64,000 bases of DNA from Escherichia phage fp01, in sequence record NC_048731.1, one strand, 5' to 3'. This document shows, one piece after another, positions 9,401 to 52,492 of this stretch. The notes below the pieces were generated by a model that did no database searches, was not told where the DNA came from, and saw nothing but the letters and a program-made list of their open reading frames with translations. Numbering within the stretch: the stretch's first letter is position 1; every line of letters begins with the position of its first letter. Both the position numbers and the translations under genes were made by a program.

Positions 9401-9403
9401 AAC

Positions 9404-9886
9404 ATGGCTGTAGATAGTAGAGAGAAAGGTAAACGTGGTGAATATCAGGTAAGAGATATTCTACGTGAGCGTACAGGTCTTGAGTGGGAACGTGTTCCTG
9501 GCTCTGGTGCTTTTGGCCAGAGCCACGGACTAAAAGGTGACATCTACCTTCCACCACAAAGCGGACACATTAGTAGATACTGCTTCGAAGTTAAGTGGTA
9601 TAAAGATGATAATATATCAAGTAATTTATTTAATGTTGGTGAATCCACTCTAGAGAAGTGGTGGCAGCAGTGCTCACGTGAAGGTGAGCAAATGAACTCC
9701 AAACCTGCATTAATATTCAAAAAAGACAGAGGACAGTGGTTAATAGCTTTGGATAGCTCAGACCCGATGGTTGACAACTTAATGAGTCGTACCCATATGG
9801 TGTTAAATAAGAAAGACATGGAAATCGTAATTGGTTTATTTGAGCCGTGGCTACATCATGCATCTGTTGAGGACTTAATTAAATAA
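9404..9886 (+). CDS. hypothetical protein, possible PD-(D/E)xK-type nuclease
   Basis: Candidate 'GDIYL...FEVKWYK' D...ExK arrangement; placed between SbcC-like and flap endonuclease genes. Weak. Confidence 0.4.
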   Translation: MAVDSREKGKRGEYQVRDILRERTGLEWERVPGSGAFGQSHGLKGDIYLPPQSGHISRYCFEVKWYKDDNISSNLFNVGESTLEKWWQQCSREGEQMNSKPALIFKKDRGQWLIALDSSDPMVDNLMSRTHMVLNKKDMEIVIGLFEPWLHHASVEDLIK

Positions 9887-34750: not shown

Positions 34751-36067
34751 TTATTTACCACGGGAAATAGAGTAAATTCCATAGCGCAGAGCATCACAAA
34801 GGTGAGAGTTAGCATCATGACGTGGTTTTTCACGTGATAATTTCTCTTCGCCTTCTTGGAAATCCCACTTGTAGTTCTGCAATGCATGGATTAATGAAGA
34901 GCATGAAGCGTCTACAATAATCTTACCCTGTTGGAATAGTGCTTGTAAACATGCTAATCCATCTAGGACAGATTTTTTAGCTGGAGCTGATGCAATTTCA
35001 TGTTCGTAAGCTAAGTCCTGGCGGAACTGAGCTGCCGCGGAATCAACGAAGATACGATCTACGTTATAACGATCTATACAGTGCTGAATATACGCAGCAT
35101 GCTGAGCTGTAGTTTTCTCTGCCTGCTGGTACTCTTCTAATACATAGTAAGTATCTGTATCATAATGATACTTGATAGTAAGAACTGCTGTAGGATCACG
35201 ATAACCAACGTCAATGCCAAGCAATGTTTCGAATGCTTCATCATCTTTAAAGAAGTGACGCATACCTTTAAGGTCTTTAACATGATCGATAGCATTAAAG
35301 GTATCAAAGATCTGACCTTCGAATACAGAGAAGTCAGCCTCATATTCCTGACGGAAGTAGTTTTTACTAACAGTACGACGTGCTTCTTCGATGTCATTCA
35401 GGTCAGCACGTGGATTATCACGATATGTACCATGAATAGACACCCAGTTAGGTAATGTATCATCAAATCCATAGGCATAAAACTCTTTAAACCAGTTACC
35501 ACCACGAGGAGTAGAGATAAATAGAGCCTTAGAATTAGGTTTATCTAGAGTAGGGCGCAGCTGAACCCTAAAGGCATCACCACCCACATCGGAAATTGCC
35601 GCCTCGTCAAAGATGATAAAATCATATGAACGTCCAACTGCGGAGTCCGCCTGAGCCGCAGAAGCTAGTTTAAATAGAGAACCATTAGCTAACTCAATCT
35701 CTTTATCTTTAGCATTCTCACGTTCAGTTTGCAACCCATACTTCTTAATAAGACCACGAATCTGAGACCATCCGATATTGGCCAGTGAGTAGTTAGGGGC
35801 AACTACTAGCACCTTCACATTAGGTTCCAGCAATTTTAGGAACCCAAGTGTATATGCTATAAAGGATTTGCCTACACGACGTGACACACACGCCGTTACA
35901 AAACGATGTCTAGGGTCCTCTAAAGCATTAATAATTGCTATTTGAGGACCATTAGGTGTAATACCTTCTTGCGCTAGTATTCCTGAAACCGGTAGACGAA
36001 AGAAACGTTTGTCTATTCCGAAATCAATAACATCTACTGTATTAACGTAGGGTCTTGATACTTCCAT
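34751..36067 (-). CDS. terminase large subunit
   Basis: Walker A-like 'SRRVGKSF', Walker B 'DFIIFDEAA', C-terminal RNaseH-like nuclease acidic residues; 438 aa. Confidence 0.85.
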   Translation of the reverse strand: MEVSRPYVNTVDVIDFGIDKRFFRLPVSGILAQEGITPNGPQIAIINALEDPRHRFVTACVSRRVGKSFIAYTLGFLKLLEPNVKVLVVAPNYSLANIGWSQIRGLIKKYGLQTERENAKDKEIELANGSLFKLASAAQADSAVGRSYDFIIFDEAAISDVGGDAFRVQLRPTLDKPNSKALFISTPRGGNWFKEFYAYGFDDTLPNWVSIHGTYRDNPRADLNDIEEARRTVSKNYFRQEYEADFSVFEGQIFDTFNAIDHVKDLKGMRHFFKDDEAFETLLGIDVGYRDPTAVLTIKYHYDTDTYYVLEEYQQAEKTTAQHAAYIQHCIDRYNVDRIFVDSAAAQFRQDLAYEHEIASAPAKKSVLDGLACLQALFQQGKIIVDASCSSLIHALQNYKWDFQEGEEKLSREKPRHDANSHLCDALRYGIYSISRGK

Positions 36068-36549
36068 TACTTCTTACCTCCAGTAGCTAGGGAAGTAATT
36101 AAGTCCATGTAGTTTTGATCCCCAGCTCCAGCAATAATATTATTCTGGATGTTGGTCTGATTGGCTGGAGTACGGGCTGCTGCCTTCACTTTCTCCAGTT
36201 CTACCATCATTTTCATTTCTTCCATCTTCATCTTGTGTGCCTTCCAGAGAATATCCATAATATCCTGGTCAGAACCCATGCCGGTTTCTTCTAGCTCCTC
36301 TAGTTTACGCTTGATAACTTCATCCAGAACACCAAATAAACGATCTCTGTTACGGAAACCACTCTCCATAAAAATATCATTTAAGTAGTTCTTAACTTCA
36401 CTACGATTCATAATATCTCGAAAAGCAATTTCGGACATCCCAAGACTACGTGCGGCAGAAGGCACATCGCTGCCGCACTGTAAATAAGCTTCAATCACAT
36501 CCATCCCTTCAGGGGACATAAGATCTGGTACTAATACATCATTTGCCAT
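36067..36549 (-). CDS. terminase small subunit (putative)
   Basis: 160 aa immediately upstream of and coupled to the large subunit gene. Confidence 0.5.
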
Positions 36550-38669: not shown

Positions 38670-38844
38670 TTAGTATAAAGCAAAAAGACATCCAAGTAAA
38701 CTAAATTTTTTATTTTTTGGATGGTATATTGGCAGAAACCACTATGCAAGAAAAGTAGAAGTCCTTCTAGGAAGTCACGAGTATGGTTGGTTATGCACAA
38801 ACTATAAAATATTCCAAATACAACATTTACGGGGCACGAAAGTT

Positions 38845-38973
38845 ATGTCAAATAAAAGAAAGAGCAGACGCGGAGAAGTGTATGATAGCTGGATAAATAG
38901 TTTTGGGTTCGGAACTATCTTATTCTTTATTTTCGTAGGTTTTTGGTTAGCAGCTATGGCGGGGTGGATTTAA
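38845..38973 (+). CDS. small membrane protein (42 aa)
   Basis: 'MSNKRKSRRGEVYDSWINSFGFGTILFFIFVGFWLAAMAGWI'; stop overlaps next start (TAATG). Confidence 0.3.
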   Translation: MSNKRKSRRGEVYDSWINSFGFGTILFFIFVGFWLAAMAGWI

Positions 38974-39077
38974 TGGGAGTAGTAATTATTGTTTTACTAA
39001 TTATTGTAATTCTAGGGCAATGTGTCTTGGATAACCACTTAGCTCGTATTGAACGTAAGCTGCGGGAATATAAATAA
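38973..39077 (+). CDS. small membrane protein (34 aa)
   Basis: 'MGVVIIVLLIIVILGQCVLDNHLARIERKLREYK'; start/stop overlaps with neighbours. Confidence 0.3.
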   Translation: MGVVIIVLLIIVILGQCVLDNHLARIERKLREYK

Positions 39078-39322
39078 TGTTTAGTATTATAATTGCTTTT
39101 ATTATCGGGATACTCGCGGGAGTTTTCGGGACGACTGCGGCAATCAACAAGCATCGTAAATATATTGCGGGAGTGACGCGGGAGATTGCGGAAAGGGAGC
39201 GGAAGTTTGACGAGAAACGTGCGGAGTTTGAGCGAGAGTGGTCGGATGGATCTCGGGCGTCGCGGAAGAGATTCCGTGAGTTCAGGCCAGAACACAGGTT
39301 TGATGACCCTTCTATGCGCTAA
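39077..39322 (+). CDS. small membrane protein with charged C-terminal tail (81 aa)
   Basis: N-terminal TM helix 'MFSIIIAFIIGILAGVFG', Arg/Glu-rich tail. Confidence 0.4.
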   Translation: MFSIIIAFIIGILAGVFGTTAAINKHRKYIAGVTREIAERERKFDEKRAEFEREWSDGSRASRKRFREFRPEHRFDDPSMR

Positions 39323-39436
39323 TTTGACTTTTGCCAAATTTCATAAGATTACACATGGAGGTGTGCCCAGTGGGTTGGGGGAGAATACTTAGTCTGCTAA
39401 CCGCCACCCCCGTTACTATTACCTTGCTAACTGTTT

Positions 39437-39471
39437 CATCCTGTAACCATTTTAATTACAGGATGAAACTA
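39437..39471. terminator. strong hairpin (13-bp arms) downstream of dmp-like gene
   Basis: 'TTTCATCCTGTAA-CCATTTTAA-TTACAGGATGAAA' perfect inverted repeat. Confidence 0.45.
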
Positions 39472-39486
39472 TGTCAACTTTAATTA

Positions 39487-40221
39487 TTACGCAACTTTTA
39501 ATTTCTCAATATATTGTTGCGGGCTGCAACTATATTCTGCGCGTTCTTCCTCGGTCATACTTTCCCAACATAATTTCAAACGATCGGCTAGGAACTGATA
39601 ATCATTATCATCCTCGAGGGATTCATCAATAAAGGTTCCGCCTATCAATGCCACGCCGATTGATAGAATATCATTAACGGCTTGCGCATCTAGCGTTTTA
39701 AATCCATATGACGCAGCCGCTGATAATACACCTTTATGATCATCAATCATTGTAAAATCAGCGTTCGGATATAGCTGTTTAAATAATTCAAAGTAATAAC
39801 TTTTGTATACTGCGTCCTTGCTGTGGTATATCTCGCTAACCTTATCAGCCTCAAAATATTTATGCAGTGTATCGCGGGAAAATACACGGATATTACTATC
39901 ACCACGCCCGCGCAATCCTTGTTTGCGCAAATAATAATAATCCGACTTGCTCATCAGCCGAGCGGTGCAAATAATGTTTAAAGTATTTGAGTCATTCATA
40001 CATTGGCGCATATATTCCACCAAAGGTAATAAGGTGTCTTGCATTATTAAATCATGTTTACACGCTTCATTTTTATACTTATTTAAATTTAAATTCCCGT
40101 CGCTATCAAAGCAAGGCGCTACACGATGGAAAGAATTAATGATAGTGCCGTCCAGATCCCAAATCATGACGCGGGAAATATGCGGGAAATTACGGGAAAT
40201 ATTCATAATAGCTTTATTCAT
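39487..40221 (-). CDS. dmp: HAD-superfamily 5'-deoxyribonucleotidase (T5 Dmp-like)
   Basis: HAD motif I 'IWDLDGTI'; 244 aa; sits downstream of the A1-like gene in the GC-richer island. Confidence 0.6.
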   Translation of the reverse strand: MNKAIMNISRNFPHISRVMIWDLDGTIINSFHRVAPCFDSDGNLNLNKYKNEACKHDLIMQDTLLPLVEYMRQCMNDSNTLNIICTARLMSKSDYYYLRKQGLRGRGDSNIRVFSRDTLHKYFEADKVSEIYHSKDAVYKSYYFELFKQLYPNADFTMIDDHKGVLSAAASYGFKTLDAQAVNDILSIGVALIGGTFIDESLEDDNDYQFLADRLKLCWESMTEEERAEYSCSPQQYIEKLKVA

Positions 40222-40300
40222 TTGTTACGTTCTCCATTAAAGGGATGTAGTTTATCCAGCACTGCCCGCTATTTATAAGCGGGCAATAATAAATCAACTA

Positions 40301-40693
40301 TCAAAGACCATAAGCCAAAGCATCGGCGATAAAACTAATATCTTCGCCGGATATATGGGAACGAATACCCGCGCAGATATACACCTTTGCGCTTGATAGC
40401 TGATCATCAAAGCAAGCCGGACAAGGCGCGACAACTGCAAACGCAAGGCCAGCTTTCACGGCGTCAATGATAATCGTTTCTTGTTTCACCGTATCAACAT
40501 AAACGCCTGCGGCCTTGATGTAACTACTTGCGCGGCCTTGCGTATAGGCGAAAGTCGTGATCTGTAGCGCCTCATTAAATTCGATTAAATCATCAACAAC
40601 GTGACCGGCCTCAACGTGATACCGCTCACCATTAGAATAAACCAGAACGATTGAGGATTGAGCGCGATCGAATGGAATATTTTGCTTTTTCAT
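40301..40693 (-). CDS. hypothetical protein with HxE...PCxxC motif
   Basis: 'YHVEAGH' and 'APCPACF'; start 'MKKQNIPF' with leader 'TTAAATTAATTGGAGTTT'. Confidence 0.5.
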   Translation of the reverse strand: MKKQNIPFDRAQSSIVLVYSNGERYHVEAGHVVDDLIEFNEALQITTFAYTQGRASSYIKAAGVYVDTVKQETIIIDAVKAGLAFAVVAPCPACFDDQLSSAKVYICAGIRSHISGEDISFIADALAYGL

Positions 40694-40759
40694 ATTTATA
40701 AACTCCAATTAATTTAATAAGGGGCATAAGCTGGAAGTATTTCCAGCTTATAAATTTAA

Positions 40760-42424
40760 TTATGCGAAAAATTTGCCGTTTTTAAAGTCAATCAAAGTGC
40801 GTTGCCCGTTGGCGTATGTAATTAAATGCGTTTGCGTCCAGCTTGACGCGCCAACGTTGTAACCCATATCCAGACTACCAGCTACGCCAGCGGTATAAAC
40901 GCCGCCATAAATGCTAGCGGTGTGAGTGTGTCCGGTGTTTAACTTGCCCAATTTCTTAAACTGCTTAGGATTGCCACGGCTGCCGTTTATGCCGTTATGA
41001 CCGTGTACACCACACTCAATGCCTGCAATTTTGAATGATTGATCAGTCGTTAGGAAAATCGCGTTAAACTCGCAACCTGCGACGCTACGCAGCGCATAAT
41101 CTAGCACGTTGAAAGTATCGTCATGATTACCGATTGCCGCGTAAATTGCAGCATTAAGGCGGTGATATAGTTCCGCATTGGCTGGGTCGTCTTTAATGTT
41201 AGCATTACGATCATCAAGCCAACGAGATAGCGCCAAATCGTGATTCGATTCAACAATGATCGTTTGACTAAAATCACGCTCCATCGATTCCAGCACGCGC
41301 CCGGTATCGATAAGATCATCAATAACCTTATCCCGTCCGGCTGCATACTGTTTCGCTAGAAATACACCGGAAGCGCGGTTATGATGATTGCGCGATGTAA
41401 AATCATGCACGTCATGGATAAACTGATATTTAGGCTTGAGAATATCAAGCAAACTATTGTCGCCAGCCCATGACGCTGCGGCGCACTCCTCATCTAATTT
41501 TTCGGCGTGAATGTCACCATACTGTAAGCCTAAAACATGCCCCGATGTTTCATAGCATCCGGCGGGAGTAGCGCAAACATTCAGATCATAAAACACCCCG
41601 CTTTCATCCATTGTTTCAAGCTGGCGAACAAAAAATTCACCGTCCTCATCGAACTCGACAATCAGCGCACCAAAGTTATGAAGTGCTTCCGCTTTCTGTC
41701 CTGCTTTCTGCTGAATGTAGTTTTTGAGTGTTGCCGTTCCGGTTGAATACATGCGGCGCACCACTTCACCTTTTAAAGCTGGGACGCTTTCGGCGGTGAT
41801 TTTAGCGTGACCAATTGCCAGACCCTCGATATTTAAAGCCGTTGCAGTTTCTGCAAATCCAGAAAGCGGATAATCTGCGGTTGGCAAAACATTAATTTCA
41901 GCCATGAAAGCAAAACGGCGGTTATTTAAAAACACGTTTTTGCTGCAAATATACTTATCAAAAGCGGAATCATATTTGATTCCGTCAGCACCTTCCCCAT
42001 TTTGGAATCCGTTTTTATTATAAATATACTTAGAAACAAGCAAATCAGCGCCGATAAATTTGGCATATTGTTCAAGCGAGGACAAAAAGTTTTTATGCGG
42101 GAAAGTATTATTCTGAATCGATGTAATAATAAAGCGTTTGCCTTGTTTTACTTCCCACTGTTCCACGGTACTAGAAACAATTCCAGCCGCTTCGGGGCGC
42201 TCATCGTTTTTAATGGCTTTTACCGCTTTCGCCGCTTTCGGTTTAGCTGGTTTATTTGCTTCCAGCCAGTCGCAGATAGCGGTTGAATGTTTTGCAGTAT
42301 CGTAAACCGCTTTTGATATATCGTCGCAGACCTCCAATTTAGTAGCGCGCAGACGTTTACCATAGAAATTAAAGTCAGCGGCTAGTTTCAGGATAGCGGT
42401 TTGTTTTTCTGCGGAAAAAATCAT
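40760..42424 (-). CDS. A1: pre-early A1-like protein with metallophosphatase (Mre11-like) motifs
   Basis: ~554 aa from 'MIFSAEK'; 'GDIHAE', 'ESNHD', 'GHNGINGSRG', 'TGHTHTA' phosphoesterase motifs; size and position match T5 A1 as recalled. Confidence 0.65.
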   Translation of the reverse strand: MIFSAEKQTAILKLAADFNFYGKRLRATKLEVCDDISKAVYDTAKHSTAICDWLEANKPAKPKAAKAVKAIKNDERPEAAGIVSSTVEQWEVKQGKRFIITSIQNNTFPHKNFLSSLEQYAKFIGADLLVSKYIYNKNGFQNGEGADGIKYDSAFDKYICSKNVFLNNRRFAFMAEINVLPTADYPLSGFAETATALNIEGLAIGHAKITAESVPALKGEVVRRMYSTGTATLKNYIQQKAGQKAEALHNFGALIVEFDEDGEFFVRQLETMDESGVFYDLNVCATPAGCYETSGHVLGLQYGDIHAEKLDEECAAASWAGDNSLLDILKPKYQFIHDVHDFTSRNHHNRASGVFLAKQYAAGRDKVIDDLIDTGRVLESMERDFSQTIIVESNHDLALSRWLDDRNANIKDDPANAELYHRLNAAIYAAIGNHDDTFNVLDYALRSVAGCEFNAIFLTTDQSFKIAGIECGVHGHNGINGSRGNPKQFKKLGKLNTGHTHTASIYGGVYTAGVAGSLDMGYNVGASSWTQTHLITYANGQRTLIDFKNGKFFA

Positions 42425-42518
42425 AGTAATAAACTCCATTAAAGGGATAAAAAACGTTTGTTATTGGCAATATTGCCAGATATAACGCCTTGAATAATAG
42501 GCGTTATAATTTGCAACA

Positions 42519-42716
42519 TTAATTTAAAGGCATAAGGCTAGAACTAACACCACAAACAACGGCGGCAATAAAACAAATCAGACCTAAACGCTTCGCTAAC
42601 TTAGATTTGCGTTTAAAATAATACGAATCTAAGTCATTTTGAAAATATGCGAACAATAACGAGGCCGCCATAATAAATAGTCCTAGAATCAGCGATTCAG
42701 TAGGGTAAAAGATCAT
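42519..42716 (-). CDS. small two-TM membrane protein (65 aa)
   Basis: 'MIFYPTESLILGLFIMAASLLFAYF...LICFIAAVVCGV'; leader 'CCCTTTAACTGGAG'. Confidence 0.4.
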   Translation of the reverse strand: MIFYPTESLILGLFIMAASLLFAYFQNDLDSYYFKRKSKLAKRLGLICFIAAVVCGVSSSLMPLN

Positions 42717-42745
42717 TTTAATAACTCCAGTTAAAGGGAAATTAT

Positions 42746-42765
42746 AGTGGGGAATAATCCCCACT
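42746..42765. promoter_or_regulatory. perfect inverted repeat between A2-like and small membrane genes
   Basis: 'AGTGGGGA-ATAA-TCCCCACT'. Confidence 0.35.
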
Positions 42766-42773
42766 AGTTAAAT

Positions 42774-43181
42774 TTATTCACCTGCGGCCTGTTTTACTTC
42801 ATCGGCAACGCCTAACAACTGCGCCACGGCGTCCAGCGTTTCCAGTTTCGCGCTTTCAAGGCTTGCCAGATCATCGGCGTCTTTGATAATGCCGGAATCA
42901 ATAGCGTGTTTTGCAATTACTCGCACATAATGAGCCTTGCGGATTGAACTGCCGCCGCCAACTTTGCGCGGCTTATCGCTTTTTTGATAGGCTTTCGCGC
43001 TGGTCAATTTTGAGCGAACGGATACGGGAGAAGTCGCGCCCACTGCCTTTGCAATCTCTTTCAGGCCGTCGCTATTTGCAAATTCTAAACCGTTTTCGTT
43101 GATTAACTGCTGATACAGGGTAACAGCTTTTTGGGTGTTGTCTTCATTCCAAGTGAATTTTGCGGTTTTTGCGTTAGTCAT
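42774..43181 (-). CDS. hypothetical pre-early protein (A2-sized, possibly DNA-binding)
   Basis: 135 aa, Lys/Ala-rich; upstream of the A1-like gene in the same operon; leader 'TTAAATTAATTGGAGTTT'. Identity with T5 A2 is a guess from order and size. Confidence 0.3.
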   Translation of the reverse strand: MTNAKTAKFTWNEDNTQKAVTLYQQLINENGLEFANSDGLKEIAKAVGATSPVSVRSKLTSAKAYQKSDKPRKVGGGSSIRKAHYVRVIAKHAIDSGIIKDADDLASLESAKLETLDAVAQLLGVADEVKQAAGE

Positions 43182-43279
43182 GGTAAAAACTCCAATTAAT
43201 TTAATTTAAGGGATTAGATTAACTAATGTTAATCGTTATAACCCTCCTTATTCTAGGAGGGTATAAAGTTAACACTAAT

Positions 43280-43531
43280 TTATAATACAGCTTCCCATTT
43301 TTCGTTGCGTTGAACAACCTTTACAACATCGCCTGATTTAACGCGAACGTTATAAACGGTTTTGCCGTTGTTACTGCGTTCTGTTTCAGCGTATACCGCG
43401 TCGATTGTATCGAACGGCATAAGCGCCGCGCCTTTAATACGTTCGGCCTTTCCGGTTAATTCATCCGTTTTAGTAACGAAAGGAATAAAAACGGATTGAC
43501 CAATTTTAGGCGTGGTAATAACGTTTTGCAT
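43280..43531 (-). CDS. hypothetical protein (83 aa)
   Basis: ORF with 'GGAG' RBS. Confidence 0.45.
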   Translation of the reverse strand: MQNVITTPKIGQSVFIPFVTKTDELTGKAERIKGAALMPFDTIDAVYAETERSNNGKTVYNVRVKSGDVVKVVQRNEKWEAVL

Positions 43532-43762
43532 AATATAGACTCCAGTTTATTCAGTGGATTGTTCCGCATTACCTGCTAGAAAATAACAGGTAATAAGAAA
43601 AAATCCGCTCGCCATTATAAAATCAAATTAAAGAACTCCACGCGGGCCGCTATATCCCAGTTAGGGGGCGAGACACATTATGGTAAGTGCCGACCGTCAA
43701 ATTGTATCAAGTTATCGCTCTTTTCGAACTGGGTATATCTTAAAAGCCCATCGGCTAGGTTG

Positions 43763-43963
43763 TCAAACTATTTTTTGCAGTTTTTTATGATTTTCCTTCA
43801 GGTCAATCATAATATTACGCCAGATCATTTCTAAACCTTGCTGGCGCCCTTTCTTGTACTGCGTGAAGCGGTATTTTACCGATCTTTGCGCTACTGTCAA
43901 TAATTTTTTAGTTTCGCTATCCAGTGCCTTGCTAGGTTTACCAGTGATCAATAGAGTTTGCAT
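43763..43963 (-). CDS. hypothetical basic protein (66 aa)
   Basis: ORF; coupled to an upstream 52-aa ORF by TAATG overlap. Confidence 0.35.
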   Translation of the reverse strand: MQTLLITGKPSKALDSETKKLLTVAQRSVKYRFTQYKKGRQQGLEMIWRNIMIDLKENHKKLQKIV

Positions 43964-44121
43964 TATTTGAGATCCTCCAAAGCGTATAAACCTTTGCCAT
44001 CATTGCAGATTATTACTGCTTCTGAATAGGTGGCATGATATTCGTTTGCCGCTTTTACCCATTGCTCGATCTTTTCGATCGTGTCGTGGGTAGCTGGATG
44101 ATCGTTATATATTGTTTGCAT
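43963..44121 (-). CDS. hypothetical protein (52 aa)
   Basis: ORF 'MQTIYNDHPATHDTIEKIEQWVKAANEYH...' translationally coupled to the next gene. Confidence 0.25.
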   Translation of the reverse strand: MQTIYNDHPATHDTIEKIEQWVKAANEYHATYSEAVIICNDGKGLYALEDLK

Positions 44122-44583
44122 ATCGTCGATTCCTTATAATGAATAAGTTTACCGCCGATAGGCTTTTAAGATATACCCAATTTTTAAAGAGCGCGGCGGT
44201 AAACTCCCCGCCGTGTAGTTCGTCATTGCCGCCCTACGAGATAAATAATAACAAACAACGAAAAAGGCGCAACCTTATATTTGTAAAGAAATGTAAAGAC
44301 AAAATCCACCGGACACCGTGCGGCGATCTGGGCGCGACGGCCTAAAATTAAAAGAAACGGGCGCGCGAATACCACAAAACACAGCAGATAAGCAAGTAAT
44401 TTTTTCATTTATATTTGCTTTGCCCTACTTGACAAAATCTAAAAAGCTCGTGGCGACGATAAACGACGTGGCCCCTTATGATTGGATGGCTAAAAACTTT
44501 ACTGCGTTCTGGGGCGTTTCAGGCCGCTTATTTTCGACTTAACAAATCATTAACAAACGCAAAATTGAAAAATAGTTGGAAAA

Positions 44584-44609
44584 GGTCTTGACTTTTAAAA
44601 ATCAAGACC
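44584..44609 (-). terminator. hairpin downstream of HNH gene
   Basis: 'GGTCTTGA-(10 nt)-TCAAGACC'. Confidence 0.4.
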
Positions 44610-44633
44610 AAATGACTTAATTTATTAAATTAA

Positions 44634-45152
44634 TTAATTGACAATTCCAAATTCAGCTTTTTTAGTTTCAAGCCATAATAATAACTCTTGTAAATCATAA
44701 CCTGACTTACTAACACGCTTGTTAGTAATAGGATTCTTAATTTGAGCAGTCAAATAGTCACGCCCGTAACTATCACGGGGGCGAACTTTATTAACGTAAA
44801 TGTTTTTAGGGATACCATTAGCACGCTTACAGTTTTCATACTCACTAGGAGTACGATTATAATTATTCTGCGAACTATCAACCGCGCGAAGATTCCAGAT
44901 GTTATTATTACGAGTGTTACGATCGATATGATCAATCATTAGCTCGCTATCTATACCGCCATTCATTATACAAAAGATAATTCTATGTACTTTTAACTGT
45001 CCCATGCCTAATAGTTCAACTTGCCAATAATTACCATTTAAACCACCTGCGACGGCGTGATCTTCCCGCCAACGTAAAAATGATAACGCTGTTTCATCAT
45101 AATAAAAGTAACTATTAAAAAGATCATAATCTATATCTTTATATTTACCCAT
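44634..45152 (-). CDS. HNH homing endonuclease
   Basis: 'IDHIDRNTRNNNIWNLRAV' HNH motif; gene is markedly AT-richer than its GC-richer surroundings. Confidence 0.65.
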   Translation of the reverse strand: MGKYKDIDYDLFNSYFYYDETALSFLRWREDHAVAGGLNGNYWQVELLGMGQLKVHRIIFCIMNGGIDSELMIDHIDRNTRNNNIWNLRAVDSSQNNYNRTPSEYENCKRANGIPKNIYVNKVRPRDSYGRDYLTAQIKNPITNKRVSKSGYDLQELLLWLETKKAEFGIVN

Positions 45153-45717
45153 TGTTATAGTTTCCTTATGTTATTAATTTAATCTCTATTATATTATATC
45201 AAAACAATTAGCAGACTAGCTAATGAGTTTTTCAGGTTTAATTAGCAGACTCATAATCACTCTAAAAACCTATTAGCCAACTAACTATATTTTATTATAT
45301 AATAACTGTATAAATTAGTTAGTGAGAACCACTATCATTTAAGTTACCCACAGCCTTATACATTTTGTAAAATAATTTGACACAATAGGCGGCGATATGA
45401 GGGCTTTTACACAGACTTATCCACAGGTTATTCCACTGTATAAATATACAGGGTAAAAAGGTAGTGTTAACAACTGCAATCAATTTTAAGCGGCCTAAAA
45501 CGCTTTCTAACGAGCTAAACGCTGCGGGGTAGTATTAAAGTAAAGCCTTCACCCGTCGGCCTGGTGGCTTCGCCGTGTCTTGCTCTTTACTACACCGCTG
45601 CGCGGTTAGCATAAAACTAGGTGTTAGGCAAGGAAAATAAAAAAGTAAAATAATCTTTGCCTATGCTAGAAAATTACCCTTATCATTCACTCACCGATTA
45701 ACGAGGGAGGCCAACAA

Positions 45718-46704
45718 ATGCGGCTATATAAACCAGATAACGCAACCGTCTTAAAAGGTGCGCTGCGTAACCTGCTGGACGGTAGCAGAACAACCAGCAT
45801 TAAACATTTTGTTTTCAATATTGAAACTATTCATCAAAACTTTTTTGATGATTATGATGCTTACAATATGAATAGTTTTCTACCGTTATATAAGCAAGGG
45901 GCAACGCTTGTTTTATATAATCAGGATTATCAATTACTTACTAGTAGGGGGCCGGATACTGATTTCATAGTCGTAAAAGGCAACACAGTAAAAGCCTATG
46001 ATACTGGGGCGGGCTTAGAAGTTTTTTCAATAGAAAACTATGAAGCCAATGATAATGATCTTTATGACGTAGAAAATTTTCTTGATTCATTTTGGCGTTA
46101 TTTATCAGTTGGCTGGAATCGGTCGGATTCTGATGGGTATCGTTTTGCGGCTATAATGGCCTTTGATGATAACGGTAATTTTTTGCTACCGTCGGAGTTA
46201 TATAATCGGGTATATGAAGGCGATATTGTTGACGCCGGATTTTCTTTCGAAAGGGAAGAAAGTATTGACAGTATAGAAAAACATGCTGTAAATTCTAACA
46301 CTAAAAGCGTTCACACTCAAACTACTGAAAACAAAGGAAAAAATGCCATGACCAAGATCGCTAACATCGTTGCCGCCAATAAGTCTGCCGTTGTAAACGC
46401 TGCAAAACTGGAAGCGGGTAAAATTGCACTGACTCAAATTACGAAAGTAGCGGCTAAAAAAGCACCGTTCATGATCAAAGGCTATATTGATACGCCGATT
46501 GGTCGTGTAGTGATCGCTAACCTGCTGAGTGTAGCGGTTGACCAGTACGCCCCGAGTAACCAGAAAGCGAAAGCGGTAGCAGGGGCGGCTATGGAAGCGG
46601 CGATGTTGGAAATGGTGCAAAGTTTTAACATCGCTGAGATGATTGATGAAATGGTAAAAGGTATCGATATTTCTACTTTCACCACTAACACCGAAAGCGA
46701 GTAA
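45718..46704 (+). CDS. hypothetical protein, acidic N-terminal half and Ala/Lys-rich C-terminal half
   Basis: 328 aa; RBS 'GAGGGAGG'; first gene of a tightly packed plus-strand operon. Confidence 0.6.
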   Translation: MRLYKPDNATVLKGALRNLLDGSRTTSIKHFVFNIETIHQNFFDDYDAYNMNSFLPLYKQGATLVLYNQDYQLLTSRGPDTDFIVVKGNTVKAYDTGAGLEVFSIENYEANDNDLYDVENFLDSFWRYLSVGWNRSDSDGYRFAAIMAFDDNGNFLLPSELYNRVYEGDIVDAGFSFEREESIDSIEKHAVNSNTKSVHTQTTENKGKNAMTKIANIVAANKSAVVNAAKLEAGKIALTQITKVAAKKAPFMIKGYIDTPIGRVVIANLLSVAVDQYAPSNQKAKAVAGAAMEAAMLEMVQSFNIAEMIDEMVKGIDISTFTTNTESE

Positions 46705-46768
46705 TAATAACTAGCGGGGTAACAATCCCCGCTTTACTATTCCCTTGTTAATTAATAGGAGGCTAATT

Positions 46769-47086
46769 ATGCAGCTTAACAAAAAAATGCTAGAACAATT
46801 GCGGGGTAGAATCCAGCGCGATGACTACCCTCACATTAATTATTCTTCGGAAGTAGTAGACACTGCCGATTCATGGAAAAAAGCAGGTTACCCCTATGTA
46901 TGGCAACATGCAGAAAGCGCAAACGGATTCCATGCCTTTCGTGATTTAGGTCATGGAAAACTTTGCGTTTTTAAAGGTGAGTTATTAATAGGAGTATCAG
47001 AATCGGAAGTAATCACGGATGAGGTTGTATTCTTAGACAATGACCAATATGAAACAGGCAATCAGTTTTATTTTCCCGCTAATTAA
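46769..47086 (+). CDS. hypothetical protein (105 aa)
   Basis: Start 'MQLNKKM' preceded by 'TTAATTAATAGGAGGCTAATT'. Confidence 0.55.
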   Translation: MQLNKKMLEQLRGRIQRDDYPHINYSSEVVDTADSWKKAGYPYVWQHAESANGFHAFRDLGHGKLCVFKGELLIGVSESEVITDEVVFLDNDQYETGNQFYFPAN

Positions 47087-47100
47087 TAGGAGGCTAATTA

Positions 47101-47595
47101 ATGGCTGAAGAAAAATATGGCTTCTCACTGGGAGAAGTGAGCACGGCAAAACATGATATGATCATTTTAGTCGATTGTCATACTGGCTATTGCGGGGAAG
47201 GGAATACCGAGGAATATTTTGTTCCTGCTGGTACGGATCTAGACGCTTTCGCTCAGGAAATGGCTATTGATAATGCTTCTCGTTTTGGTAGCGATGGCTA
47301 TGAAGACGAGGAAACTGGCGAATGGTATGAAAATGAAAACGTATATGCGAGCCTTTATCATTATCAATTAAGTAAATCCGGCACATATGTAAACGGCGGC
47401 GATCCTATTAATTCCGTCATGAAATTAATTATTAAACACGGTGGCGTCGAGATAATTGATAACAAAGCGGTAATATATGCAAACCGATTAAAACAGCTTG
47501 TTTATATCCCTGATAGTACCCGATGGGATGAATACGCCGTTTTGCATGACGAATTGAAACGATGTTTCAATGTTGAAGCCTTACAAGTAGTCTAA
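47101..47595 (+). CDS. hypothetical acidic protein (164 aa)
   Basis: Preceded by the same 'TTAATTAATAGGAGGCTAATTA' cassette; Asp/Glu/Tyr-rich. Confidence 0.6.
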   Translation: MAEEKYGFSLGEVSTAKHDMIILVDCHTGYCGEGNTEEYFVPAGTDLDAFAQEMAIDNASRFGSDGYEDEETGEWYENENVYASLYHYQLSKSGTYVNGGDPINSVMKLIIKHGGVEIIDNKAVIYANRLKQLVYIPDSTRWDEYAVLHDELKRCFNVEALQVV

Positions 47596-47701
47596 TGTAA
47601 AGTTTTGTAAAGGTCGCCTTTTATGGTGGCCTTTTTTGCTATAATGCCTTTACACCGTTTGAGGACGGTTGAAAATTTTCCCAAAAATTTGGAGGCTTAA
47701 A

Positions 47702-47932
47702 ATGGTTGCTTATTCTTCTTCTGACGCTCTTTTCACTGGGAAAGGCTGGGTATCTAATCGCTGGATTATTCAAGAAATGGTGCAAGAATACGGCATTGCT
47801 AAAACTTACACTACCATTCAGGCGCTTTATGATAATGATCAAATCGATCAGCAAACGGCGGGCTTTTTGCTGGATACCCTGAAAGCGGAACACTGTACCA
47901 AAAAACAAGCGGCAAAAATTGTTTTAATGTAA
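47702..47932 (+). CDS. hypothetical protein (76 aa)
   Basis: ATG at 47702 with 'GGAGG' RBS; preceded by a 'TATAAT' element at 47639-47644. Confidence 0.45.
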   Translation: MVAYSSSDALFTGKGWVSNRWIIQEMVQEYGIAKTYTTIQALYDNDQIDQQTAGFLLDTLKAEHCTKKQAAKIVLM

Positions 47933-47981
47933 TTAATAACGGGGCGTTACTTTCGCCCCACTAACTAGGGGAGTAGTACAA

Positions 47982-48164
47982 ATGGTTATTTTTCGAGCTG
48001 TTCTAGCAGGTATCTTGGGCGCTATTTTGACCCTTTTCGCCACCGCGTATGGTATTCAGGATTCCTATTGCGGTTTGGTAAATACAAAACCAATGGTTAC
48101 TATTGGCGCTGGCATTGCTGTATTTTCTTATCTGCTAGGCTGCATGACTAGTAAAGGAGAATAA
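47982..48164 (+). CDS. small membrane protein (60 aa, two TM)
   Basis: Hydrophobic 'VIFRAVLAGILGAILTLFATAYG' and 'TIGAGIAVFSYLLGC'. Confidence 0.45.
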   Translation: MVIFRAVLAGILGAILTLFATAYGIQDSYCGLVNTKPMVTIGAGIAVFSYLLGCMTSKGE

Positions 48165-48166
48165 AA

Positions 48167-48379
48167 ATGATCCGCAACGTTTCTCTTGCACGTTCGAAAG
48201 GCTTTAAGCTGGTGGATGCTAACACGTTCGAGCGTCTTGATTGTAAAATCGAATATGTAGCACGTAACAAAAATGCCTTTCGTGTTACCGAGAAAAAATT
48301 TGACAAGCGCGGCAACGTGATCGCTGAAACGGTTAAACACTTTGCCACCTTTTACGCTGCGTTTCGTGGGGTGTTATAA
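48167..48379 (+). CDS. hypothetical basic protein (70 aa)
   Basis: 'AAGGAG' RBS; coupled to neighbours. Confidence 0.45.
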   Translation: MIRNVSLARSKGFKLVDANTFERLDCKIEYVARNKNAFRVTEKKFDKRGNVIAETVKHFATFYAAFRGVL

Positions 48380-48380
48380 A

Positions 48381-48725
48381 ATGGTTATTTATGAAGGCAA
48401 TCGTTTTGTTGCTAATTGCCGCCCGGCATTGTTAGCAAACTATTTAAATCAGCTTTCGCCAGCTTATAAGGGCGTTATTAATATTTATGAGGGCAAGGCA
48501 CATTATAAAATTAATGCGGTCGTTGCCCGTGAACTAGCATTTCAATTTTTGACCTTTGCATCTTGTGACGTTCAAGTTATGGGTGAAGCATTAATTGCGG
48601 AAAATGAAGAGGATTTTATTAATATTTTCCGCAAGGTATGCACCGAGCGCCTGATAATGAAAGGCGCGTATATTCAATCCACTGCGGATAGTATTGAAAC
48701 AGCGTTTCGAAAGGTGGCACAATGA
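48381..48725 (+). CDS. hypothetical protein (114 aa)
   Basis: ATG at 48381 directly after upstream stop. Confidence 0.5.
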   Translation: MVIYEGNRFVANCRPALLANYLNQLSPAYKGVINIYEGKAHYKINAVVARELAFQFLTFASCDVQVMGEALIAENEEDFINIFRKVCTERLIMKGAYIQSTADSIETAFRKVAQ

Positions 48726-48880
48726 AAAAGTTTTTAATAGCTGGCATGTTTCCTTTGTTGCCTTATGTAATTTGCTGGGCTTTATATGCTCATGGTGCTA
48801 GTGTTCCCGGTGTGGCTGCATTTGGTGTATCAGCGGGCTTTCTAGCCGGACTACTAGCAAGCGTATATTTACGCAAGTAA
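48722..48880 (+). CDS. small membrane protein (52 aa)
   Basis: 'MKKFLIAGMFPLLPYVICWALYAHGASVPGVAAFGVSAGFLAGLLASVYLRK'; ATGA overlap with previous gene. Confidence 0.4.
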   Translation: MKKFLIAGMFPLLPYVICWALYAHGASVPGVAAFGVSAGFLAGLLASVYLRK

Positions 48881-48899
48881 TTAACAACGGAGCGTTATT

Positions 48900-49094
48900 A
48901 TGAGCAATAAAATTATTGTAACCAAAACCAGCACAACGGTTGATGTTTTTTACGTGCCCGATACGCCGGAAAACCGACAAGCGGTCGAGCGTGGGGAATA
49001 TGATAAAGTGATTTATGATCACGATGGTTATTATCAGTATTTGGTGGATTCATATGGGGAGGAGGAAAAGATCACGCACCGACTACCGGACTAA
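48900..49094 (+). CDS. hypothetical acidic protein (64 aa)
   Basis: Last ORF before the repeat landscape. Confidence 0.45.
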   Translation: MSNKIIVTKTSTTVDVFYVPDTPENRQAVERGEYDKVIYDHDGYYQYLVDSYGEEEKITHRLPD

Positions 49095-49133
49095 TAATCA
49101 CGGGGCGCAACTATCAGGAAGTGCCCCCAATTC

Positions 49134-49158
49134 TCAAATGAGAATGATTCTCATTTGA
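49134..49158. repeat. perfect 25-nt palindrome
   Basis: 'TCAAATGAGAAT-G-ATTCTCATTTGA'; motif 'AAATGAGAATGATTCT' recurs at ~49650 and ~49700. Confidence 0.85.
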
Positions 49159-49360
49159 CCGCGCCCGCGATGGTTAGCCTGCTAATGGTTAGGGTGTTAC
49201 GTGTCGCCTTGTGTGATCGTTAGCGAGCTAACTAATTTTCAAGCCTCCTCCAATTTTGCCCTTGTTTTAGTATCCCCACCAAAATTAAACGCGTTAGAAT
49301 GCGTTTGAGGGCGTTTTAGCGGTATATTAGAATTATTCACTGCGTAGGAATACTGTATAT

Positions 49361-49460
49361 TTATCCAGTAGGATAAGCTGTGGATAAGTCTGTTGATAAC
49401 GCTTCAAAACGGCTAGGATTTTGTCAAGTCAAATCGTGCTGTTGATAAGTCTGGGGATAA
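49361..49460. promoter_or_regulatory. cluster of DnaA-box-like 9-mers
   Basis: 'TGTGGATAA' (perfect complement of TTATCCACA) plus 'TGTTGATAA' x2, 'TGGGGATAA', 'TTATCCAGT' within ~100 bp. Confidence 0.6.
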
Positions 49461-49485
49461 CTTAAATAATAGTGTTTCTCACTTC

Positions 49486-49740
49486 CGTTCTTAAATGCGA
49501 ATCATTATCATTTGCATTCCACTTCCTGAATAAGAATCATTCCACTATCTAAACGATAATCATTCCACTTCCTGAATAATAATCATTCCACTATCTAAAT
49601 AAGAATCATTCCACTATCTAAACGATAATCATTCCACTTTTTAAATGAGATTGATTCTCATTCCACTTTCTAAATGCGAATTATTATCATTCGCATTCCG
49701 CTTTTTAAATGAGAATGATTCTTATTATCATTCGTATTTA
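49486..49740. repeat. tandem iteron-like ~23-bp repeats
   Basis: About 8 head-to-tail units of 'CATTCCACT(A/T)(T/C)CT(A/G)AA(T/C)(A/G)A(T/G)AAT' with variants. Confidence 0.8.
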
Positions 49741-49762
49741 GCGCAGAGCAATTGCTCTGCGC
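49741..49762. repeat. perfect 22-nt palindrome followed by T-run
   Basis: 'GCGCAGAGCA-ATT-GCTCTGCGC' then 'TTTTGTG'; could act as a terminator or protein site. Confidence 0.8.
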
Positions 49763-49765
49763 TTT

Positions 49766-50369
49766 TGTGCAAAACCGACATTGCTCCACGGGTGTTACGT
49801 GCGGGCGTATGTGCAAATCCGACAGGATTTTTGGTAGTGTGCAAATCCGACCCGAAAAATTTTTATAGTGTGCGAATCCGACAATGAATTTTTCCAAAAA
49901 CTCCAGCAATCCGATGCTGCGCATCAATCCTGTGGAATTAACTAGAATATGTGCAAATCCGACATGAGTTTATTTGTGCGAATCCGACAAGATTTTTGTG
50001 ACTTCGATTGGAGGGTGTGTGATTGTGTGGGTTTGGGGAGAAGTTGAGAGAGCGAGGGAAAATTAGGGGAGAAGCTAGAGAGGCGCATGTTTGGTGCGGG
50101 GGCACCCGATTTGCGGGGATTTTGGGGAAGAGTTGAGAAGATTTGGGTTAATTTGAGATTAGTGGAGATAAAGTAAAATTTTATTAGCTAAATGGGGCAA
50201 AATAGCTTGACAAGTGAAAATTCTTGTGGCTCTAAAAACTCAGGCAATCATGGGCCTTCGGCCCGAAATAATGCTGCCATTTTCAAGAGATTATGTGTCC
50301 ATGAAAACTTAGGCAATTGTGCAAATCCGACCATAAATTTCTAGAAACACAATGTGCAAATCCGACAGT
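49766..50369 (+). repeat. eight dispersed direct copies of a 14-nt motif
   Basis: 'GTGC(A/G)AA(A/T)CCGAC(A/C)' at ~49767, 49811, 49840, 49871, 49950, 49977, 50320, 50353, all on the same strand. Confidence 0.8.
50000..50200 (+). repeat. purine-rich G-tract region with 3 copies of 'GGGGAGAAG(T/C)TGAGAG'-like unit
   Basis: Strong G+A skew on plus strand; G-runs 'GGG','GGGG','GGGGG' spaced by short linkers. Confidence 0.7.
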
Positions 50370-50914
50370 AAAATCCAGAAATGTGTTTTCAAAAAATGTT
50401 GTCTAGAAATAACCGCCCTCCCCATAACCGCCCTGTATTAAACCGCCTAGTATATGTTCCTAGAAACTTAGGAGAACCGCCCACTAGAAGTGTGATATCT
50501 CGTGAGTATTTCGTGAGAACTCTGGAGTTTCTAGGAAAGTGTTGTGCCATCCTAGCAGATGAGCGGCAACAGGTGTATCATCTTGAATGTAAATTATGTG
50601 GTCAAAAGTTTTACTTTTATTTTAAATATAAGATCCCCCAGGGTTCTCATATAGAGCTTTGCCCCCGCCAGAAGGTCTCGTGATGTTTCTAGCAATTTAT
50701 ATTAAATTACTTATTAACTTGTCCTGTCGCTCCGTATCCTCCGCTACAAGTTAGTAATTTTAAATTACTGAACCACCACACCTTCTGTGTGGCAACTCTA
50801 AATGGTTAATTCTATTAACTCATAGAGTTATGATAACATACATTTAGCTATCTGTCAACGAGAGTTTGTATTTGAGTCTCGGTACAGGTATTGTGCACCG
50901 AGACTTGCAGGATC

Positions 50915-51799
50915 TTACAGTAACTCTTGGTATGCTTTTTGATACGCCTCAGTGTCCGTAGGTGTACCTTTTGCAATGGCTATTAATTCATCTGTAATCT
51001 GAATATTCGTATTATAACGTGAGTGGAACTCGTCAGGAATTTCTAGATACCTATTGATGAATGCTGCAGCAAGCGGTGAAGCTACACCCATTTCTAGAAC
51101 CCATCCAACATGGTTTTCAAATTTCAGATAAGGAGAATCAGATGGGATTGGTGGGGTTACATCAATTTTCTCTGGTTCTTTTTCTGGAAGCAACGGATTA
51201 TTATATAATGCTTCATCTGGAAGCACAGATTTACGCTCTTTAAATATATAAGTTTCTAGATCAGATGCTTTAGATCCTGAGTATACAGCAAAGATGCTAG
51301 CTTTACCTTGTGATGCTCTAACTGGTAGATAACTAGTAGGATAGCTTCTTAATGCATCATGGAATGGACTTCCTGAATATTTGTACGTATCCCCATAGAG
51401 ATCGTCAATATTCATTCGTTCATCTTCAAAAATGTGAAATGACTTAAATGGTGGAATGGTGAAGTATTCCATCTGTAATCCATAAACTAAGAAACGATGT
51501 GCATATGCACTGATTTTTAAGACTGTGAATGCTTTTTCACCTTCTTTATGGGCATTGCCCTTTGAAGTAACTGGGTAACGTTTACAAAACATCTCTACTA
51601 GACGTTTCTCATTAAGACTAAGGGTGGAGTACAGTCGTCCACTTAACCCTATAAGTGCATCGAACATAAATGCTAGTTTATCTTTTTCTTCTTGGGTTAG
51701 TTCAGGAAACGGAAGTACTTTAGCATTAGGAACACTATTATTCTCCTTTGCCTTTACTTTGCCAGCATTTTGTCTTAGTTTATCTTTAAAGTTATACAT
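50915..51799 (-). CDS. hypothetical early protein (294 aa)
   Basis: Long ORF, first gene of the minus-strand early block after the repeat region. Confidence 0.55.
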   Translation of the reverse strand: MYNFKDKLRQNAGKVKAKENNSVPNAKVLPFPELTQEEKDKLAFMFDALIGLSGRLYSTLSLNEKRLVEMFCKRYPVTSKGNAHKEGEKAFTVLKISAYAHRFLVYGLQMEYFTIPPFKSFHIFEDERMNIDDLYGDTYKYSGSPFHDALRSYPTSYLPVRASQGKASIFAVYSGSKASDLETYIFKERKSVLPDEALYNNPLLPEKEPEKIDVTPPIPSDSPYLKFENHVGWVLEMGVASPLAAAFINRYLEIPDEFHSRYNTNIQITDELIAIAKGTPTDTEAYQKAYQELL

Positions 51800-51877: not shown

Positions 51878-52492
51878 TTAGCTACCTCTCTTATCCTCGT
51901 CGATAACAGCTCCCAACGCCTCCATAATAGCATCTTCTAAGCTTCCATGCTTACTAGGATTATTAAAATGAATAGTACAAACAGAACTCCTAGAAACTCC
52001 AGCATCCGCAGGTGCTACGCTTCGCATATCAGATTCAAAAGCTTCTTGAGTATGTTTCAGCTGTACAGAAGGGCCGTAGTCTTCACCAAACTTATATGAC
52101 TGCGTACTACTTACCACACCCCCACAAGGAACATTGTGCATATCCGACATTAATCTTTTATCGGAGTTATTCAGCATTGAGATTGTCCCTGACTGCCACG
52201 GATCTCTAATAGTCACTGGAGTACTGGGGCGATTCACCTCGGTCTTCACAAGTTTGTACCCTGCATCGATTAATGCGTTAATTAGATTATCAGCCGGGAT
52301 GCGAGCCTTGCCAAAAATCTTACGAGCATCTTCGAGCTTATCCTCAAGATCTTTACATGCTCTAAGGTCATTGTGTGCAAATGTTAGCTTCATAGATTTG
52401 AATTGTACAGTAGCAGTTAAATCTTTAAAGCTATAATCCCATGTGTTCAGTTCATGATCTGGTACTACTTGAATAGGTTGTTGTGTAAACAT
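51878..52492 (-). CDS. hypothetical early protein (204 aa)
   Basis: ORF. Confidence 0.5.
   Translation of the reverse strand: MFTQQPIQVVPDHELNTWDYSFKDLTATVQFKSMKLTFAHNDLRACKDLEDKLEDARKIFGKARIPADNLINALIDAGYKLVKTEVNRPSTPVTIRDPWQSGTISMLNNSDKRLMSDMHNVPCGGVVSSTQSYKFGEDYGPSVQLKHTQEAFESDMRSVAPADAGVSRSSVCTIHFNNPSKHGSLEDAIMEALGAVIDEDKRGS

Follow-up and report, generated by a model that had tools for sequence, protein, structure and literature searches.

A strand-asymmetric, G-rich and C-depleted non-coding tract beside the right end of the terminal repeat in the T5-like Escherichia phage fp01

The terminal repeat and its right end

The stretch of DNA analyzed here is a 64-kb window of the genome of Escherichia phage fp01 (NC_048731.1), and the element in question is a G-rich, C-depleted tract on the plus strand at 50006–50160; all coordinates are positions in this window. 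The map of open reading frames (ORFs) shows late structural genes followed by dmp (244 amino acids, aa) and A1 (559 aa), both on the minus strand, and past A1 there are small plus-strand ORFs, 1.7 kb without a convincing gene, and then leftward early genes. The genes dmp and A1, as well as the terminal repeat (TR), were located through homology to T5, and A1 is 91–97% identical to the A1 proteins of Tequintavirus and Epseptimavirus. Using the 3 kb around the tract (48500–51500) as the query, 452 phage records were matched, nearly all of which are T5-like Salmonella and Escherichia phages; phage S131 is the best match to this query (91.6%), and phage PH204 matches at 96.7% over 301 bp around the tract. 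By homology, the window is thus best read as the genome of a T5-like phage (Demerecviridae) with one collapsed copy of a TR of ~10.9 kb.

A single copy is proposed because the start of T5 and the end of its left TR both map within the window: in comparison with T5 (AY587007), T5 position 1 corresponds to approximately 39364, and the end of the left T5 repeat (10139) corresponds to 50232. The inferred repeat (39364–50232, plus strand) would hold dmp, A1, A2, the pre-early ORFs, and a non-coding repeat region. The tract lies 72–226 bp inside the right end of the TR, between an array of 15-mers (T5 direct repeat D, DRD) and a conserved terminus block, and therefore should be present twice per virion, once at ~10.7 kb and once in the terminal 230 bp.

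The terminus block (50170–50232, plus strand) is highly conserved and ends with ...TTGACAAGTGAAAATTCTTGTGGCTC, which places the putative TR right end at 50232|50233. In T5, phiR2-01, and SIY1lw alike, the repeat end given in the annotation coincides with window position 50232, and seven contig ends in IMG/VR, that of T5 included, stop exactly 12 nucleotides (nt) past the 22-mer AAAATAGCTTGACAAGTGAAAA. Judging from these ends, the TR right end is precisely conserved.

The elements of the non-coding region follow the same order as in T5, namely DnaA boxes, AT-rich palindromes, palindrome J with the nick, the DRD array, the G-rich tract, the TR end, and more DRD copies, and the column identity to T5 over 49700–50480 is ~88%. 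In RefSeq, T5 carries a feature named iss ("injection stop signal", 9140–10149), which by base-by-base mapping ends at window position 50162, and the tract corresponds to the last 155 bp of this feature. Relative to T5 repeat region 3/iss (AY587007, NC_005859), the present phage shows allelic differences only. In a comparison of 25 T5-like phages, Davison (10.1101/866236) termed the region "Repeat Region 3" and stressed its conservation; direct repeat A (DRA) copies 2 and 3 were listed without a function, and the likely iss was placed further left, at IRD'-spacer-IRC' and the DRE repeats. Neither "G-rich" nor "purine" occurs in that article (10.1101/866236), and the strand asymmetry is not commented on. 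The G-rich stretch is therefore a known non-coding piece of T5-type genomes, already contained in the T5 annotation and ordinary as a sequence feature.

A reading of the region as a plasmid origin was rejected, since the 3-kb query has no match in PLSDB, and the DnaA boxes and iteron-like repeats are part of the T5 iss region. The replication origins of T5 are located mid-genome (10.1101/866236).

Composition and conservation of the tract

The tract comprises 68 G, 10 C, 36 A, and 41 T, i.e., 44% G and 6.5% C, and the slightly wider segment 50000–50200 contains 79 G, 14 C, 54 A, and 54 T. It has the strongest G–C skew of the 64 kb in windows of 75, 155, and 200 nt (z = 6.1, 6.65, and 6.4, respectively), which bears out the first-pass annotation of a strand-asymmetric G-rich tract at this location, and it is the only such tract within the 64 kb. 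Runs of three or more G number 10 per 200 nt, compared with a window mean of 1.0 and lower maxima everywhere else, in agreement with the at least seven runs that had been noticed at first. By our own estimate, ~7 such runs would be expected by chance in 155 nt at 44% G, and nine were counted. Therefore, it is the composition that is unusual, and the runs are no separate signal.

The same annotation had described three repeated units, and this description stands in part. Unit 1 (TTTGGGGAGAAGTTGAGA, 50032–50049) and unit 3 (TTTGGGGAAGAGTTGAGA, 50121–50138) form a pair of plus-strand 18-mers with 89% identity, whereas unit 2 (TTAGGGGAGAAG, 50063–50074, plus strand) is a partial 12-mer whose second half is alignable only with an indel, so that the proposed pattern, allowing three mismatches or fewer, matches two of the three. 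Unit 2 also falls where the tract varies most between relatives (65% pairwise identity), and resembles unit 1 more closely in the present phage than in T5. Unit 3 is the counterpart of T5 DRA copy 2, which maps to 50119–50137, and the sequence ATTTGGGTTAATTTGAG (50141–50157, plus strand) is that of DRA copy 3, mapped to the same positions. A core of the form GGGGATTTTGGGG lies at 50115–50127 (plus strand). The tract was rightly placed just downstream of the repeat array, the last TGTGCGAATCCGACA copy of which ends at 49989.

The tract is non-coding and probably cis-acting. No conserved ORF was found on either strand, with only short ORFs (55 aa or fewer) overlapping the tract, and the indels between relatives are 1 and 2 nt long, i.e., not multiples of three; a protein-coding reading was rejected on account of these short ORFs and frame-breaking indels. 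Rfam searches gave no family at the gathering threshold across the window, and matches with E up to 5 were at chance level, none of them in the tract. There was likewise no match in the tract to the FtsK KOPS sequence GGGNAGGG, or to Chi (GCTGGTGG, one mismatch or none). Separately, Chi-like sequences (GCTGGTGG, one mismatch or none) number 41 in the whole window against 23 expected, with none of 100 shuffles reaching 41; two of these octamers, both in the plus strand (6745 and 48208), match Chi perfectly. Pairs of inverted repeats that enclose the tract (49987–49997/50217–50227 and 50020–50034/50236–50250) were considered and rejected, as they do not covary in relatives and therefore are probably due to chance.

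Conservation was assessed in 26 relatives from Tequintavirus and Epseptimavirus, to which the composition and identity figures refer. In 25 of these, each ~155 nt contain 60–68 G (39–44%) and 8–15 C (5–10%), the exception being relative L016 with 73 G, partly in a long G homopolymer run. The pairwise identity figures tell a different story from the composition: 0.81 for the tract and 0.65 for the part with unit 2, vs. 0.94 for the terminus block and 0.96 just outside the TR. This comparison indicates that the strand composition is held despite sequence turnover.

The composition extends to other genera, in which the sequence is not alignable. Klebsiella phages of the genus Sugarlandvirus have a G-skewed tract at the TR right end, in which D repeats alternate with motifs of the TTGGGGGAAG type; in Erwinia phage KEY, a segment with 55 G and 6 C per 150 nt ends 10 nt from the TR end; and Vibrio phage GRLPWR (Thalassavirus) carries ...GATTTTGGGGGATTTGGG... 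within the last 200 nt of its TR. All three have a T-run followed by a G-run near the TR end. A comparable purine-rich tract is present in Proteus phage 1 (Novosibvirus), for which the TR end was not mapped; here an array of tandem units of ~16–22 nt (AATAATAGAATGGTGGGG...), with 53 G and 5 C per 150 nt, lies in reverse complement at ~1770–2000 of the equivalent 2.6-kb non-coding stretch. GRLPWR, whose A1 is 31% identical to that of the present phage, also keeps a D-repeat 13-mer (GTGCAAATCCGAC), a CCTGCGC nick-type motif adjoining the first copy of this 13-mer, and DnaA boxes (record positions 120300–121000), and conservation of such depth is unusual for non-coding repeats. Searching for related loci with the T5.018-like protein returned close relatives only, and a 16-mer metagenome scan mostly returned unrelated contigs, adding, together with a rescan of viral contigs, only seven T5-like loci.

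Embedded in the tract is a small two-tier hairpin (50084–50115, plus strand), with the outer stem CGCA/TGCG and the inner stem GGTGC/GCACC, and compensatory changes are observed in both tiers. The stems of relatives are GCAGC/GCTGC with GGCGT/ACGCC or TGGCG/CGCCA, the loop is GGGG in the present phage and GGA in T5, and three one-sided C-to-T changes produce G-T wobbles on the plus strand. The hairpin is followed by GGGATTTTGGGG in the present phage, in which a run of 4 T starts 4 nt past the stem, and directly by GTTTTTGGGG (GTTTTT) in Epseptimavirus-type relatives. In the latter, the hairpin with its immediate T-run looks like a plus-strand intrinsic terminator.

Neighboring repeats, hairpins, and promoter

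To the left of the tract, two pairs of DnaA/DnaA*-type boxes were read from the sequence, each with 3-bp spacing: TGTGGATAA at 49379 with TGTTGATAA at 49391, and TGTTGATAA at 49440 with TGGGGATAA at 49452. The paired layout is as described for T5-like phages (10.1101/866236). The palindrome AGCGCAGAGCAATTGCTCTGCGCT (49740–49763, plus strand) corresponds to T5 palindrome J with its CTGCGC nick site, and the counterpart of the 7.9% single-strand nick of T5, which is on the minus strand, is at 49762|49763.

Palindrome J is followed by the TGTGCAAATCCGACA repeat array, as in T5-type repeat region 3, with six DRD copies inside the TR and two outside. The six 15-mers of the type TGTGCRAAWCCGACM (49766–49989, plus strand) start at 49766, 49810, 49838, 49869, 49950, and 49975, and the two further copies (50318–50367, plus strand) start at 50318 and 50353, so that 15-mer arrays are found on both sides of the TR right-end cut. 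Stray 15-mer copies occur elsewhere in the window, with TGTGCAAAACCTACA and GGTGCAAATCCGACA adjacent at 8728–8757 inside a 639-aa ORF (7481–9400), and TGTGCATATCCGACA at 52135–52149. Two other repeat types were seen in the non-coding DNA between the TR end and the first early gene, i.e., three AACCGCCC(T) repeats at 50405–50450, and many CTAGAAA/TTTCTAG motifs at 50340–50700.

Beyond the TR, an invariant hairpin (GGCAATCAT-GGGCCTTCGGCCC-GAAATAATGCTGCC, 50243–50278) is located 11 nt outside the TR end and, with T-runs in either strand, resembles a bidirectional terminator placed exactly at the junction of repeat and unique DNA. Further right, a leftward consensus promoter (50858->50830; TTGACA, 17 nt with TG, TATCAT) is perfectly conserved just past the stop of the T5.018-like gene. 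This promoter is followed by ~200–230 nt of near-invariant non-coding DNA (50590–50858, minus strand) that is predicted to form a long imperfect hairpin, with a minimum free energy (MFE) of −66.7 kcal/mol (z = −5.6; none of 200 shuffles equally stable). The ORFs of this segment do not exceed 33 aa, Rfam gave no match to it, and it is a candidate structured small RNA or large DNA palindrome. At the other side of the TR, the fourth most G-skewed segment of the window (38831–39030) was found left of the TR left boundary, inside small plus-strand ORFs.

Proposed genome-end recognition and competing explanations

Taken together, these observations are best explained if the tract is a module of DNA that acts in cis and has been maintained for its strand composition, a few T-run/G-run motifs, and one small hairpin. 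As to what such a module might do, we tentatively favor a role in cis in the recognition of the genome end and in packaging. T5 is known to inject its left end first (10.1101/866236). By the last-in, first-out principle, packaging would then begin at the right end, so that the initiating terminase cut would have the tract as the first DNA on its packaged side. In this scheme, the tract would adjoin the cut on the side packaged first, a direction that we infer from the order of injection, and together with the flanking DRD 15-mer arrays it would be part of what the terminase complex recognizes.

The distribution of G-skew across the window is consistent with such a role. The most G-skewed 200 nt end 35 nt left of the TR right boundary, and the second most G-skewed 200 nt (39107–39306) end 58 nt left of the TR left boundary (39364). 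The same skew pattern is seen at the boundaries of T5, and in GRLPWR, of which 12 kb were examined, the top two skew windows are again just left of both TR boundaries. G-rich DNA is thus found on the same side of both cut sites, as expected for a directional terminase. Further, the proteins of the packaging machinery are among the better conserved relative to GRLPWR, with 59% identity for the large terminase (34751–36067) and 43% for the 160-aa protein in the position of the small terminase (36067–36549, minus strand), compared to 31% for A1. The uniqueness of the tract in the window also argues against a generic transcription signal, which predicts more such tracts. Four features together suggest a role in end recognition: the tract keeps a constant distance to a precisely conserved cut, it is retained throughout the family, the polarity is alike at the two boundaries, and the window has no second such tract.

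Precedents exist for non-coding DNA of this kind. Lambda cosB and T7 pacB are non-coding elements that directly adjoin a sequence-specific terminase cut on its packaged side, and in T7, short-repeat arrays (SRL/SRR) flank the terminal repeat, and a transcription pause or terminator is found at the concatemer junction. The present tract is alike in being beside the cut on the packaged side, with short-repeat arrays flanking the TR boundary, and the T7 terminator is comparable to the hairpins near the tract. However, there is no sequence similarity to cosB or pacB, the T5 repeat is 10 kb long vs. 160 bp in T7, and a strong G/C skew is not known in those systems. A further parallel, to be taken as a lead only, is herpesvirus pac1, in which a T-rich core is placed between G/C runs near the genome end, the large terminases of herpesviruses and phages being homologous; the present phage has GGGG-ATTTT-GGGG near its putative terminase-made end. 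The distance to the end is ~105 nt here rather than ~30–35 nt, though, and the first G-run is lost in Epseptimavirus.

Several points weigh against a role in end recognition. The sequence at the TR left boundary is not conserved between T5 and the present phage, and a cut-site motif common to both TR boundaries had to be rejected, since the TCCAC-type similarity seen in T5 is lost here. At the left boundary, the G-skew coincides with plus-strand ORFs that contain many Glu and Arg codons, and therefore may be a coding by-product. The ~10-bp helical phasing of A/T tracts and G-runs, which is expected for protein-wrapped DNA, was significant vs. mononucleotide shuffles but was lost with shuffles that keep the runs (417/1000), and is therefore an artefact of the control; the tract ranks 24th of 555 windows by phasing. 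A protein-binding array alone also would leave the C-depletion of the variable spacer unexplained, and no paper on a T5 pac site, or linking T5 sequence to terminase binding, was found in the literature. Finally, the gene order is identical in every genus examined, and therefore adjacency to the TR end and a position downstream of leftward transcription are inseparable.

The latter position leads to the first alternative, i.e., that the tract is a Rho loading (rut) site or insulator between the early region and the TR. Leftward RNA from the tract would be C-rich and G-poor and would load Rho, and together with the plus-strand hairpin and T-run, such a site would stop transcription both ways at the pre-early/early boundary. 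Such minus-strand RNA would indeed be 44% C and 6.5% G over 155 nt, with one hairpin predicted in its center (MFE −12.7 kcal/mol) and the remaining ~120 nt unpaired. Known rut sites (e.g., lambda tR1) similarly comprise at least 70–80 nt of C-rich, G-poor, weakly structured RNA and are set by composition rather than by sequence, and the minus strand of the tract would provide more than 80 nt of this kind. A rut site predicts what is seen here, composition kept without sequence, although the skew of the tract is more extreme than that of typical rut sites and the tract is longer. The early genes next to the tract lie on the minus strand in all genera looked at, the perfectly conserved promoter at 50858->50830 fires leftwards toward the tract, and at the left boundary, too, the G-skewed segment lies downstream of a leftward operon (dmp/A1/A2). 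The terminator-like Epseptimavirus hairpin with GTTTTT and the three plus-strand G-T wobbles would fit as well; however, as each of the three wobbles results from a C-to-T change, which is the most frequent mutation, the evidence for the strand that they provide is weak (p about 0.125). Against this explanation, terminator-like hairpins at ~50640–50620 and 50243–50278 already stand between the promoter and the tract, and the many leftward operons that end in the window would lead one to expect more than the one such tract seen in 64 kb. Nothing was found in the literature showing the use of Rho by T5 or transcripts of the region. We consider a rut site or insulator unlikely on this balance, if worth keeping in view.

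A second alternative is suggested by the annotation itself, since the tract is inside the RefSeq T5 iss feature. As part of the iss, the tract might be bound by a host protein or by A1/A2, or adopt a non-B structure, and in this way halt or restart DNA transfer after ~8% of the genome. The tract is ~250–400 bp right of the 7.9% nick and of the estimated shear point (10.1101/866236), and by our own geometric reasoning it would therefore occupy the channel through the tail or envelope while transfer is paused. Recent papers refer to the mechanism of the stop as unknown and suspect secondary structures or host factors (PMC13250531), while pauses of ejection in vitro correlate with nicks (PMC2771126). 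The first-pass idea of a strand-specific obstacle to DNA translocation thus would not be absurd, as it fits both the location of the iss and the published speculation on secondary structure (PMC13250531). By contrast, the literature puts the stop signal further left (10.1101/866236), the annotated iss is the sequenced non-coding region as such rather than a functional map, and a similar G-skew is present at the other TR boundary, which has no obvious role in injection. We therefore regard a part in the injection stop as doubtful.

The weakest of the alternatives is that the plus-strand G-runs fold into a G-quadruplex (G4), or form an R-loop, when single-stranded and thereby block a polymerase, helicase, or motor. 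The tract has 9–10 runs of three or more G, with at least four such runs in every relative, and contains five of the window's 28 G4Hunter hits (|score| >= 1.2, both strands); the depletion of C would remove competing hairpins, and long-loop or intermolecular quadruplexes may form. Canonical motifs are present in two of nine lineages, phage GreteKellenberger and Klebsiella phage JIPh_Kp127 (GGGTATTTTTGGGGGAGGGATAAACAGGG), but in neither the present phage nor T5, phiR2-01, SIY1lw, KEY, GRLPWR, or Proteus phage 1. In the present phage, the canonical motif (four runs of three or more G, with loops of 1–7 nt or of 12 nt or less) has no match in the tract or the whole window, no two-tetrad motif was found in the tract, and ViennaRNA with quadruplex energies predicts no quadruplex in the minimum-energy fold. 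The maximum G4Hunter score (25-nt window) is 1.44, below the commonly used 1.5, and the maxima in 25 of the 26 relatives are 1.16–1.60, with a higher value only where there is a G12 homopolymer. The loops between successive G-runs are 13, 3, 17, 7, 28, 12, 5, and 17 nt, whereas the same runs placed randomly would give a motif with loops of 7 nt or less in 60% of arrangements, and of 12 nt or less in 90%. The number of runs is close to the chance expectation for 44% G, and in the 26-sequence alignment the runs of the left half are not conserved, e.g., GGGG at 50035 is GAGG, GTGG, or GGAG in most sequences, while GGGGATTTTGGGG is conserved within Tequintavirus only. Telomere-type TTTTGGGG repeats offer a likeness, in that G-runs preceded by T-runs are on the strand running 5' to 3' toward the DNA end, and TTTTGGGG occurs once in the tract (50120–50127); relative to telomere-type or canonical G4 sequences, however, the runs are too widely spaced, are not in a tandem array, are at best partly conserved, and have a sub-threshold propensity. 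With no canonical motif, a low predicted score, no quadruplex in the fold, and runs that are not conserved in the left half, the G4 proposed at first pass is not supported and seems improbable, and the conserved property appears to be the composition rather than a quadruplex.

Recognition of the genome end, Rho loading, injection stop, and G4 formation are not mutually exclusive. Extending end recognition to the whole family, one might speculate that all T5-family phages mark both TR boundaries with a G-rich strand that runs 5' to 3' toward the cut and is read by a DNA motor, which seems a rather long shot at present. The marks would include T-run/G-run motifs such as GGGGATTTTGGGG, and the motor would be the terminase or, alternatively, the machinery that halts and restarts injection.

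Two processes are unexplained in T5, the two-step injection of its DNA and the cutting and duplication of its 10-kb terminal repeats, and the non-coding region at the TR right end is the sole candidate cis element for either. Published descriptions of this region list repeats and palindromes, and assign the G-rich segment no role. What our analysis adds is a composition conserved across subfamilies, from phages of E. coli to those of Vibrio, a covarying hairpin, and the top G-skews of the window just left of both TR boundaries. The tract is therefore a concrete target for mutation in assays of packaging, termination, and injection. If the boundaries are indeed marked in the way proposed above, the mark would be the first defined cis element for either end formation or the injection stop in T5, a problem that is more than 50 years old.

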